A stretch of DNA of 64,000 bases, taken from positions 5,444 through 69,443 of the forward strand of contig CAYRMI010000004.1 of assembly GCA_964425625.1 (NCBI GenBank). The letters are read 5' to 3'. The notes under the pieces are model-generated. The model made no database searches, was not told the DNA's origin, and saw nothing but the letters and a program-made list of their open reading frames with translations. Shown here piece by piece: positions 51,743 to 55,482 of this stretch; within the stretch, counting starts at the first letter, position 1; each line of letters opens with the position of its first letter. This DNA is from an uncultured Candidatus Saccharibacteria bacterium. GTDB taxonomy: Bacteria; Patescibacteriota; Minisyncoccia; Phycocordibacterales; UBA918. A program made the position numbers and the translations under genes.

Positions 51743-53140
51743 CTACGCTTTAGGTTTAATAGAGATACCTAGTTCAATCAGTTGCTCGGTAGTGACTTCA
51801 GACGGGGAGTCCATCAGTAAGTCTCTCCCCTCACCGGTTTTAGCAAAGGCGATGATTTCACGGATGTTAGGCTCGTTCTGGAGTAACATAATTAAGCGGT
51901 CAAAACCAAAAGCCAAGCCACCATGGGGTGGTGTGCCAGAAGCAAAAGCCTTTAGCATATGACCAAAGTTATTTTGAATTCGTTCGGCCTCGTAACCCAT
52001 TATTTCAAACACTTTTACTAGGGCTTCAGGGGTGTGATTTCGAATACCTCCGCCACCGATTTCGTAGCCGTTTAGAACCATGTCATACTGCGCCGCCACA
52101 ATGTCTTCAATATCTTTCTTTTCTAGTAAATGCTGATTGTACTCAGGTTTGGGGGCAGAAAAGGGATTGTGAGTAAAGGTCCAGCCTCCAGTCTCGGTCT
52201 TTTCAAAGAAAGGAAAATCAACTACCCAGCAGAAGGCTAGGAGGTTTGGATCAGTTTTATCCTCGCGCAAATCCGGCTTATCACAACCATACTTTTCCAT
52301 CGCTTCTTGATAAGACAGTCGAGGGAATGGCACTTGCTGAATTTTTTTCTCGGGATAAAGAGTCTTCACCAATTCCGTAATCATTCTTTCATTCATAGCC
52401 ATAACATCCTCTTGTTCAACGAAACTCATCTCGATATCAATCTGCGTAAATTCTGGTTGACGATCGCCACGCGTATCTTCATCTCTAAAGCAACGCGCGA
52501 TTTGAAAATACTTTTCAAAGCCAGCGGTCATGAGCAGTTGCTTATATTGTTGGGGTGACTGGGGCAAGGCATAGAATTTTCCTTGGTATAAGCGTGATGG
52601 CACAATATAGTCTCGTGATCCTTCTGGAGTAGATTTGGTCATGTTTGGGGTCTCTACCTCAGTAAATCCCTCATTGGAGTAGAAACTACGGACAAATTGA
52701 ATGGCTTTATGTCGATTGCGAATATTTCGTTGCATGCGTTCACGACGGAGGTCGATATAACGATAACGAAGACGTACTTCTTCATTAATTTCTTTGCCGT
52801 CGCCACTGATATCAAAAGGTGGCGTCTCAGCTTCATTGAGGACAGTTATTTCGAGTATTTCGAGTTCGATATCACCGTTTTGCTTGTTTGCCTGAATCGC
52901 TCGCTCCGGTCGCTCATTTACTTTAGCCTTTACAGCTACTACCCACTCGGGGCGTAGCTTGGAACCCACCTCGTGTGTCTCTACGGCATTGGGGAGGATT
53001 ACACCTTGAACCTTGCCGGTCATATCGCGAAAATCAAAAAAGATAAGCTTGCCTTGGTCGCGCCTGGTATCTACCCAGCCTTTGATCGTCACTTCATTTC
53101 CCACTTCACTTTTGAGTGCACTGATGAGAGTTCGAGTCAT
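51743..53140 (-). CDS. aspS: Aspartyl-tRNA synthetase (short form without GAD insertion; possibly non-discriminating)
   Basis: N-terminal OB fold (VTIKGWVDTRRDQGKLIFFDFRDMTGKVQ). Class II motifs FRDE (motif 2), GGGIRNH and GLAFGFDRLIM (motif 3). Start at MTRTLISAL (track ORF starts at upstream TTG 53170). Confidence 0.9.
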   Translation of the reverse strand: MTRTLISALKSEVGNEVTIKGWVDTRRDQGKLIFFDFRDMTGKVQGVILPNAVETHEVGSKLRPEWVVAVKAKVNERPERAIQANKQNGDIELEILEITVLNEAETPPFDISGDGKEINEEVRLRYRYIDLRRERMQRNIRNRHKAIQFVRSFYSNEGFTEVETPNMTKSTPEGSRDYIVPSRLYQGKFYALPQSPQQYKQLLMTAGFEKYFQIARCFRDEDTRGDRQPEFTQIDIEMSFVEQEDVMAMNERMITELVKTLYPEKKIQQVPFPRLSYQEAMEKYGCDKPDLREDKTDPNLLAFCWVVDFPFFEKTETGGWTFTHNPFSAPKPEYNQHLLEKKDIEDIVAAQYDMVLNGYEIGGGGIRNHTPEALVKVFEIMGYEAERIQNNFGHMLKAFASGTPPHGGLAFGFDRLIMLLQNEPNIREIIAFAKTGEGRDLLMDSPSEVTTEQLIELGISIKPKA

Positions 53141-53149
53141 ATTGTTTGT

Positions 53150-53405
53150 TTGGTTAAATCTGAGAAACAAAAATTGCCTCTACAGATTTTTCTTATTTCC
53201 CCCTAGGGGGAATATTTGATAAATCTGTAGGGGCGGTCTCGATAAGGAGTTATCCGCGGTGCCACCCTACTTCCCTACTCGTATGCGAGTGTGGGCTCTT
53301 TTTGGTGGCGTGTCGTGCCAGACGGAGGTATTTACTGAGCCAATTATAGATAATATGACCGTTCCCACCTCACCTCAGCAGTAGTCAGCTGCGTCAGCGG
53401 TATGG
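53150..53405 (-). ncRNA. T-box riboswitch leader upstream of aspS
   Basis: Minus-strand AGUAGGGUGGCACCGCGG (+ strand 53254-53271) matches the T-box sequence AAUUAGGGUGGNACCGCG. The antiterminator has GUAGGG/CCCUAC and GCGG/CCGC helices flanking the 7-nt bulge UGGCACC. A competing terminator GCCCCUACAGAUUU ... AAAUCUGUAGAGGC is followed by AAUUUUUGUUU, ending about 20 nt before the aspS ATG. Bulge UGGC predicts pairing with a G73 discriminator, consistent with tRNA-Asp. Confidence 0.8.
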
Positions 53406-53407
53406 AG

Positions 53408-53440
53408 TTGATTATACAATTATTAACTGAAAAATCAAAC
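53408..53440 (-). promoter_or_regulatory. Sigma-70-like promoter for the T-box/aspS transcript
   Basis: Minus strand: TTGATT-16 nt-TATAAT (+ strand AATCAA at 53433-53438, ATTATA at 53411-53416). Confidence 0.5.
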
Positions 53441-54543: not shown

Positions 54544-55482
54544 TTAGATAGTTAAACCAATTAGACGGCGAACTTCAGCCATCTTGGCGCTGGCAATGGC
54601 ACGGGCTCTAGCTGTTCCTTCCTCGAGAATAGCTTTGACGTCACTGTCTGTTATATTACTGCGAATATCGCGCATTGGGGAGATAAATGTATCTAAATCT
54701 TCAATCAAAGCATCTTTAAGGTTTTTGTATTTACCTTTGTTTTCTTCGTAGAGGGCTGTTAGTTCAGACTCGCCCTTGAGGAGTTTGTGGATAGCGTAGA
54801 CGTTTTCCGGTCTTTCGCCACTAGAATCAGTAACGATACTCATTACGGCTTTTTGTATCTCCTCACGACTACCAAATAGTGGAATGGTGTTTTTGTAACT
54901 CTTGCTCATCTTTTGTCCGTCGGTACCGGGCACAATTCCGACACCTTTTAAAATCATCTCTTGTGGTGGGGTAAAAGTTTCCCCGTAGGCATTATTGAAT
55001 TTGGTGACGGCTTCACGAGCATACTCAATATGTTGGCGTTGGTCTTCACCTACGGGTACCACCTCAGCGTCATAAAGCAGAATGTCTGAGGCCATAAGCA
55101 TGGGATAGTTGAACAGACCAGCCGTGGCTTCGATGCCCTTGGCGACTTTATCTTTGTAGGCGTGGGCCTGCATAAGAAACGGTACAGTGACCAGGCATTC
55201 AAATATCCAGGCTAGTTCAGTATGCTCTGGCACATCTGACTGTTTGAAGATGGTGGCTTGTTTTGGGTCCACTCCAACTGCGAGATAGTCCTTTACTACA
55301 TCGATGATGTTTTGTCGTAAGCCAGCGGCATCGCGCACGCTAGTGAGAGCATGAAGATCGGCTACCATCAAGTGACTTTCATAGTCTTGGTAAATATCAG
55401 CAAAGGGTTTTAGGGCTCCAAAGTAATTACCAATATGCAAATTTCCGGAAGACTGTAATCCAGTTAATAGTCTTTTTTTCAT
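54544..55482 (-). CDS. trpS: Tryptophanyl-tRNA synthetase
   Basis: LTGLQSSGNLHIGNYFGAL (HIGH-class motif) and KMSKS motif. Confidence 0.9.
   Translation of the reverse strand: MKKRLLTGLQSSGNLHIGNYFGALKPFADIYQDYESHLMVADLHALTSVRDAAGLRQNIIDVVKDYLAVGVDPKQATIFKQSDVPEHTELAWIFECLVTVPFLMQAHAYKDKVAKGIEATAGLFNYPMLMASDILLYDAEVVPVGEDQRQHIEYAREAVTKFNNAYGETFTPPQEMILKGVGIVPGTDGQKMSKSYKNTIPLFGSREEIQKAVMSIVTDSSGERPENVYAIHKLLKGESELTALYEENKGKYKNLKDALIEDLDTFISPMRDIRSNITDSDVKAILEEGTARARAIASAKMAEVRRLIGLTI

Follow-up and report, generated by a model that had tools for sequence, protein, structure and literature searches.

How is aspS, the gene for aspartate–tRNA ligase (AspRS), controlled in an uncultured Candidatus Saccharibacteria bacterium, and does the RNA transcribed ahead of it sense a tRNA? 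The question is raised by a 64-kb stretch of contig CAYRMI010000004.1 (the window, meaning the whole stretch analysed), where a promoter-proximal leader extends on the minus strand from about 53404 to 53165, upstream of a gene for a 465-residue AspRS. An earlier reading made from the letters alone (the sequence-only reading) had proposed a T-box leader with a UGGC bulge and an antiterminator/terminator switch before aspS, and this proposal is supported by the Rfam alignment, by a covarying family of related leaders and by the Pfam and NCBIfam identification of the gene product. On the sequence evidence, the region is very probably a T-box transcription attenuator for aspS in Patescibacteria (the candidate phyla radiation, CPR) that senses uncharged tRNA-Asp. 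T-boxes are the classic case of one RNA sensing another, and the leader would extend this form of regulation to the Patescibacteria, which have very small genomes and few known regulators.

The T-box sequence itself, AGGGUGGCACCGCG (14 nt; 53255–53268, minus strand), matches the consensus AGGGUGGNACCGCG (AGGGTGGNACCGCG) exactly and is present in a single copy, with 0.01 copies expected by chance in 64 kb. It belongs to a longer stretch, AGUAGGGUGGCACCGCGG (53271–53254), located 140 nt past the −10 element, close to the 150 nt or so from the promoter that had been predicted. The bulge UGGCACC (53264–53258) begins with UGGC (53264–53261), which would pair with a tRNA 3′ end reading GCCA; the C of the bulge predicts G73, the discriminator base that tRNA-Asp generally carries. 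Across the family of related leaders the T-box is invariant except at its N position, which is C in most members and U in some.

The window was scanned with 4227 Rfam families, at gathering scores and then by E-value. At gathering scores there were zero matches in the 64 kb, and at E ≤ 0.5 the only match was to RF00230, which aligns end to end (model positions 1–219) to 53406–53226 on the minus strand with 32.9 bits, the gathering score being 93 (E = 1.3e-5 for the region and 0.0015 for the whole window). The alignment covers a kink-turn (K-turn), Stem II with its AGUA, Stem IIA/B, Stem III, the T-box and the antiterminator, and 3 nt stand in for 72 model positions that make up the distal two-thirds of Stem I. 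This replacement, and not the absence of a T-box, is the reason for the low score. The sequence-only reading had named the lack of a significant RF00230 hit as the outcome that would speak against it; at the gathering score that outcome was formally obtained, and the missing distal Stem I explains it. The window copy is not alone in this: when 16 family members were searched, 14 were detected at 26–53 bits, all below the gathering score, and 2 were undetected at E ≤ 0.1. Annotation at the Rfam threshold misses the whole leader class.

The family was assembled from two sources. We took the 80 closest AspRS loci (56–81% identity) among 185,579 species genomes, almost all of them metagenome-assembled genomes (MAGs) labelled Patescibacteria, Paceibacterota, Parcubacteria or Saccharibacteria, with a few carrying other pipeline labels. 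This places the window in a CPR bacterium and not in the Firmicutes, so that the lineage hint drawn from the presence of a T-box, toward a Firmicutes-type organism, was not borne out: the closest AspRS loci, at up to 81% identity, come from CPR MAGs. The same kind of leader lies directly upstream of aspS in 10 of the 80 loci, and a covariance model of the region that spans discriminator and terminator (R1) confirms the leader in 11 of 81 loci, counting that of the window. Over 600 kb of related loci R1 found nothing elsewhere except one weak match directly upstream of aspS in locus L032 (L032:2897-2983; 21 bits, E = 0.22; upstream gap 649 nt), which may be what is left of a degenerated leader. 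The gap upstream of aspS is 238–428 nt (978 nt in one case) in loci that carry the leader and has a median of 51 nt in those that lack it; since leaderless loci have such short gaps, the patchy presence is real and not a failure of detection.

Metagenome contigs contributed about 28 further unique members, found by scanning for a pattern of CYRAC, GAGG and the T-box, suitably spaced. The scan also returned many chance matches in GC-rich coding DNA and unrelated T-boxes, and only sequences with the signature of K-turn, hairpin and terminator were kept. The family then totals about 39 leaders, drawn from metagenomes and from genomes of Patescibacteria, and each lies upstream of an AspRS gene; an AspRS-like open reading frame (ORF) follows the terminator in 37 of 37 members tested. 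AspRS identities across the members range from 25 to 83%, and the loci are not duplicates of one sequence. In a condensed alignment of 29 members (alignment A2) the base helix, Stem I, lower Stem II and IIA are together 90.9% paired, with 65 cells changed on both sides compared with 23.2 ± 4.3 in shuffles (0 of 500), and sliding the partner columns cuts pairing to 40–51%. A second alignment of 34 sequences (A3) spans the discriminator and terminator. Between them, on the evidence of these alignments, covariation supports every helix. One could suppose that a chance resemblance to a T-box happens to lie beside an ordinary terminator and promoter and has no role in tRNA sensing, as the sub-threshold RF00230 score and an unremarkable promoter match might suggest; this is hardly credible given the expected count of 0.01 for the 14-mer, an Rfam alignment that runs end to end and some 39 homologous leaders that covary in six helices, all before AspRS genes.

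The aspS product (51743–53140, minus strand) is a bacterial-type enzyme with the Pfam domain tRNA-synt_2 (class II Asp/Lys/Asn type) and an OB anticodon-binding domain, and it matches NCBIfam NF001750 with 635 bits over a cut-off of 443. The NF001750 match is split into two stretches, indicating that the GAD insertion domain is missing from this AspRS; the same short form is seen throughout the related CPR loci. A class IIb paralogue (AsnRS or LysRS) was not found elsewhere in the window.

At the other end of the leader, the promoter that had been proposed, TTGATT-16-TATAAT, is present on the minus strand, with a −35-like hexamer at 53433–53438, a 16-nt spacer and a −10 hexamer at 53411–53416. 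It scores 10 of 12 matches in a promoter scan that finds 1 such site per kb compared with 1.5 expected in shuffles; taken alone, the promoter match is not above chance. From its position, transcription is predicted to start at about 53404, a few nucleotides upstream of Stem I. A −10-like hexamer ends 7–10 nt before the K-turn in most family members, and with the −10 so close, the transcript would begin at the K-turn and could not contain a longer Stem I.

What does this ultrashort Stem I (53373–53400, minus strand; Rfam and family alignments) consist of, and which codon does it present? It has a base helix CC/GG, a K-turn, a 4-bp helix GCAG/CUGC and a 7-nt apical loop CUGACUA (53388–53382). 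The K-turn is recognized by its sequence pattern, a bulge GCU and tandem G-A/A-G pairs formed by GA at 53395–53394 and GA at 53376–53375; the GA/GA and CC/GG positions of this pattern are invariant or nearly so in the 29 aligned members (alignment A2), where G8, A9, A28, G29 and G30 do not vary at all. The 4-bp helix is 96.6% paired in the family, with double changes at 2 of its 4 pairs. The sequence-only reading had called for a check of the Stem I fold and of its GA/K-turn motifs, and the outcome is divided: the K-turn is there, but Stem I is not canonical, being devoid of the internal specifier loop, the AG bulge and the distal platform for the tRNA elbow that mark a long Stem I.

GAC had been noted twice in the putative Stem I, and the choice between the two copies had been left undecided. 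The first (53395–53393) was rejected as specifier: its first two bases are the invariant GA of the K-turn, and family members differ in the third (GAC, GAA, GAU, GAG). The second (53384–53386, minus strand) occupies positions 3–5 of the apical loop, for which the family consensus is YYRACA(A). It behaves as the specifier, as judged from the alignment, and matches the amino acid of the regulated AspRS; GAC pairs with the tRNA-Asp anticodon GUC. The loop was left unconstrained in the search that yielded the 11 genome-derived leaders, which are thus unbiased for the loop codon: 8 carry GAC, 3 carry AAC (L014, L019 and L048) and no other codon occurs. The loop codon is always GAC or AAC in the whole family as well, with AAC in 6 members.

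Downstream of Stem I, the leader has the remaining parts of a T-box decoding region. Stem II (53325–53371, minus strand), found by the Rfam alignment, the minimum free energy (MFE) fold and covariation, comprises a lower helix GAGGU/ACCUC, an S-turn-like internal loop GGGAAC/CAGUAAAU and a variable upper hairpin. All 5 pairs of the lower helix are changed on both sides within the family, in which it is 92.4% paired, and the motif AGUAGA is conserved. We considered whether apical Stem II might hold a substitute element for binding the tRNA elbow, and rejected this, as the region is conserved in neither length nor sequence. The Stem IIA/B pseudoknot follows at 53306–53324 (minus strand), with IIA formed by CGU/ACG around the loop CUGGC and IIB by UGGC of that loop (53320–53317) with GCCA (53309–53306). 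Because a linker of 2–6 nt breaks the MAFFT register, IIB was evaluated by permutation of own against cross-sequence partners: the complementary run between a sequence's own loop and linker averages 4.68 nt, compared with 3.44 nt across sequences, and none of 2000 permutations gives a value as high as that observed. IIA is 74% paired in the family column count, which is subject to the same limit of alignment register. Stem III (CCC-ACA-CUCG-CAUA-CGAG-UA-GGG; 53273–53295, minus strand; Rfam alignment and MFE) is shared by only some of the family members.

One detail of this region is particular to the window copy. Positions 53304–53309, the IIB 3′ strand with its flank, read GCCACC and contain GCCA like the 3′ end of a G73 tRNA, and in the MFE fold they pair with GGUGGC of the T-box (53261–53266, minus strand). 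The self-mimic is not conserved in the family, and this imitation of a tRNA acceptor end is probably coincidental.

The switch itself is made of two structures that share a strand. The antiterminator (53227–53270, minus strand; folding and covariation) is the two-helix element with bulge UGGCACC that had been predicted: helix A1 GUAGGG/CCCUAC, the 7-nt bulge, helix A2 GCGG/CCGC and a 17-nt loop, at −14.8 kcal/mol. In the 34 family sequences it is 94.7% paired, with 17 cells changed on both sides compared with 5.3 in shuffles (0 of 500). The intrinsic terminator (53165–53234, minus strand; folding and covariation) has a 14-bp outer stem of GCCCCUACAGAUUU (53234–53221) with AAAUCUGUAGAGGC (53189–53176), including one C-A mismatch, at −29.3 kcal/mol; the U-tract AAUUUUUGUUU follows at 53175–53165. 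In the same 34 sequences the stem is 89.0% paired, with 7 of its 14 pairs changed on both sides (0 of 500). The 5′ strand of the terminator shares nucleotides with the 3′ strands of A2 and A1 (53236–53227), and since both structures use CCGCCCCUAC, only one of them can form at a time. Folded without constraints, the 245-nt leader reaches an MFE of −78.7 kcal/mol (z = −3.5) in a structure with Stem I, Stem II, IIA, Stem III and the terminator. Of 36 members, 35 have a terminator that is more stable than their antiterminator, the means being −24.2 and −13.1 kcal/mol. In the long terminator loop of the window copy lies a perfect palindrome, UUCCCCCUAGGGGGAA (53212–53197), flagged on the plus strand by the terminator scan; it is part of an insertion of about 30 nt that is unique to this copy within the family.

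Does the hairpin act on transcription or on translation? An ultrashort Stem I with its specifier in the apical loop, together with Stem II and IIA/B, is the architecture of translational T-boxes (PMC7583486, PMC11297988), and the leader could accordingly be read as one of these, like the actinobacterial ileS class, with a sequestrator hiding the ribosome-binding site. The rest of the hairpin's features argue otherwise. A U-tract follows the terminator hairpin in nearly all members. In the window the aspS ATG (53140) lies 24 nt downstream of the end of the U-tract, in good agreement with the predicted 20 nt or so, and the distance from the terminator to the ORF match ranges from 6 to 190 nt across the family. 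Neither the hairpin nor its surroundings hold a Shine-Dalgarno sequence, and the ATG is preceded by AACCAAACAAACAAU; the hairpin contains no start codon and nothing complementary to the initiation region, and its 3′ strand covaries only with the 5′ strand that overlaps the antiterminator. An expression platform that sequesters a Shine-Dalgarno sequence, as in class II, is thus not what is seen here. The U-tract, the variable spacing and the missing Shine-Dalgarno sequence together point to transcription attenuation, and translational control is very unlikely.

By analogy with the established T-box mechanism, attenuation of aspS would proceed as follows. Transcription would start a few nucleotides upstream of the K-turn, and the nascent RNA would fold the ultrashort Stem I, whose 7-nt apical loop would present GAC. 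Next would come Stem II, including the S-turn, and the IIA/B pseudoknot; a distal part of Stem I that could contact the tRNA elbow is missing. An uncharged tRNA-Asp could then pair its anticodon GUC with GAC and its free 3′ end GCCA with the bulge UGGC, and its binding would stabilize the weaker antiterminator, allowing RNA polymerase to read into aspS. With the tRNA charged or absent, the stronger terminator and its U-tract would form instead and transcription would stop 24 nt before the ATG.

Several points weigh against this account. Transcriptional T-boxes generally need a long Stem I and an elbow platform for fast co-transcriptional capture of the tRNA (PMC7583486, section 6.2), which makes a short Stem I coupled to a terminator mechanistically unexpected. 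The RF00230 score lies far under the gathering score, as given above. The U-tract is not continuous and is shifted by 2 nt. A search for tRNA genes found none in the window, and scanning 102 related loci turned up no tRNA-Asp in which the anticodon GUC or G73 could be read. In the metagenome subset CYRAC, GAGG and the T-box are ascertained features; the helices that were counted lie outside that pattern. Finally, the window copy has a U directly after the specifier (CUGACUA), where the family has a conserved purine (CUGACA). A purine at this position is conserved in T-boxes in general, and the U may mean that this copy works less well.

This last point could be taken further: the family would be functional, and the window copy would have weakened or be decaying into a relic that has lost its response to tRNA. 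Besides the lost purine, the unique insertion of about 30 nt with its palindrome would fit such a history, as would the patchy presence (11 of 81 loci), which implies frequent loss, and the remnant-like appearance of L032 at 21 bits. Against decay, the helices, K-turn, S-turn region, pseudoknot, exact T-box, bulge and terminator of the window copy are all intact, and its closest relative (L001, 81% AspRS identity) keeps the same architecture. We regard a relic as unlikely and retain the reading of a working attenuator.

How does such a leader relate to known T-boxes? Reviews divide them into transcriptional T-boxes, with a long Stem I and elbow platform, and translational ones, with a short Stem I (PMC7583486, PMC7778990, PMC11297988). 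With the class I transcriptional T-boxes (RF00230; for example Bacillus subtilis tyrS and glyQS) the leader shares the K-turn, a specifier that matches the aminoacyl-tRNA synthetase (aaRS), the S-turn, IIA/B and Stem III, as well as the 14-nt T-box, a 7-nt bulge whose UGGN reads NCCA and an exclusive terminator with U-tract. It differs from them in that its Stem I is a 4-bp hairpin without internal specifier loop, AG bulge or interdigitated T-loop platform, in its 32.9 bits against 93, and in its patescibacterial host. The class II ileS T-boxes of Actinobacteria (Mycobacterium ileS), compared here by way of a review (PMC7583486), are similar in their short Stem I, apical-loop specifier, K-turn and lack of an elbow platform, and in their presumed reliance on Stem II and IIA/B for tRNA binding. 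Unlike them, the leader has a terminator and U-tract in place of a Shine-Dalgarno sequestrator, it precedes aspS with GAC or AAC and not ileS with AUC, and it belongs to CPR and not to Actinobacteria. Judged by its sequence, then, the leader combines a decoding module of the translational class with an expression platform of the transcriptional class.

The chances are about even that CPR have a T-box class of their own, one that terminates transcription without an elbow platform and reads tRNA-Asp or tRNA-Asn through an apical hairpin resembling an anticodon loop, with the help of only Stem II and IIA/B. If so, fast tRNA capture would be possible without elbow contact, or transcription in CPR would be slow or paused enough to dispense with it. 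A whole T-box class would also have gone unannotated, scoring 26–53 bits where Rfam asks for 93. By joining a short decoding module to a terminator, the family offers a natural test of whether elbow contact is required for co-transcriptional sensing. A full-text search, with most subscription journals outside its reach, found no literature report of T-boxes in Patescibacteria or CPR.

The members with AAC, an Asn codon, bear on what the leader family reads. They are L014 (about 2664), L019 (about 62), L048, L104, L149 (identical to L173) and L166, with loops CCAACA, CUAACA and AAAACA. The leaders of L104, L166, L019 and L048 precede proteins 63–78% identical to the window AspRS. In L099, L129 and L149 the leader precedes an archaeal-type aspartate–tRNA(Asn) ligase (NF003483) and not the bacterial type, so the leader has been kept or moved across two non-orthologous types of AspRS. 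A non-discriminating AspRS charges both tRNA-Asp and tRNA-Asn, and from the GAC and AAC specifiers we infer that this enzyme clade is probably non-discriminating and also serves tRNA-Asn. The distribution suggests that some lineages tune aspS to the charging of tRNA-Asn, and the alternation of GAC and AAC upstream of orthologous aspS would show, at the level of regulation, which of the two tRNAs is limiting for a probably non-discriminating enzyme. A precedent for an Asn specifier reportedly exists in Clostridium acetobutylicum, where a 2012 study by Saad et al. is said, by its title, to concern Asn-specific T-box control of the tRNA-dependent asparagine pathway; in its specifier it parallels the AAC members and not the window copy with its GAC.

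Control by a T-box is not general among the aaRS genes of this genome segment. A gene for a class I Trp/Tyr-type tRNA synthetase lies 1.4 kb upstream on the same strand (54544–55482, minus strand) and has no T-box-like leader of its own: it is separated by a 39-nt gap from the preceding histidine kinase gene, and no Rfam match falls there.

Among the related loci, two members depart from the common layout. L025 (L025:2831-2960; 71 bits with R1) is without Stem II, the IIA/B pseudoknot and Stem III and has its antiterminator and terminator intact; such a leader would be either a T-box reduced to the extreme or one in decay. In L048, Stem II is retained and IIA/B is missing. A second recurrent T-box-like leader (…GGGCCGUAUCUGACAAAGUGAGGCUGGCC…GGGUGGYACCGCG…), of a different family, was seen in L089, L112, L115, L120, L133, L140, L159, L177 and L198. 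It precedes an ORF starting M(K/N)…LTGDRPTGPLHLGHY, with a HIGH motif like that of class I aaRSs, and its 5′ region is apparently also short.

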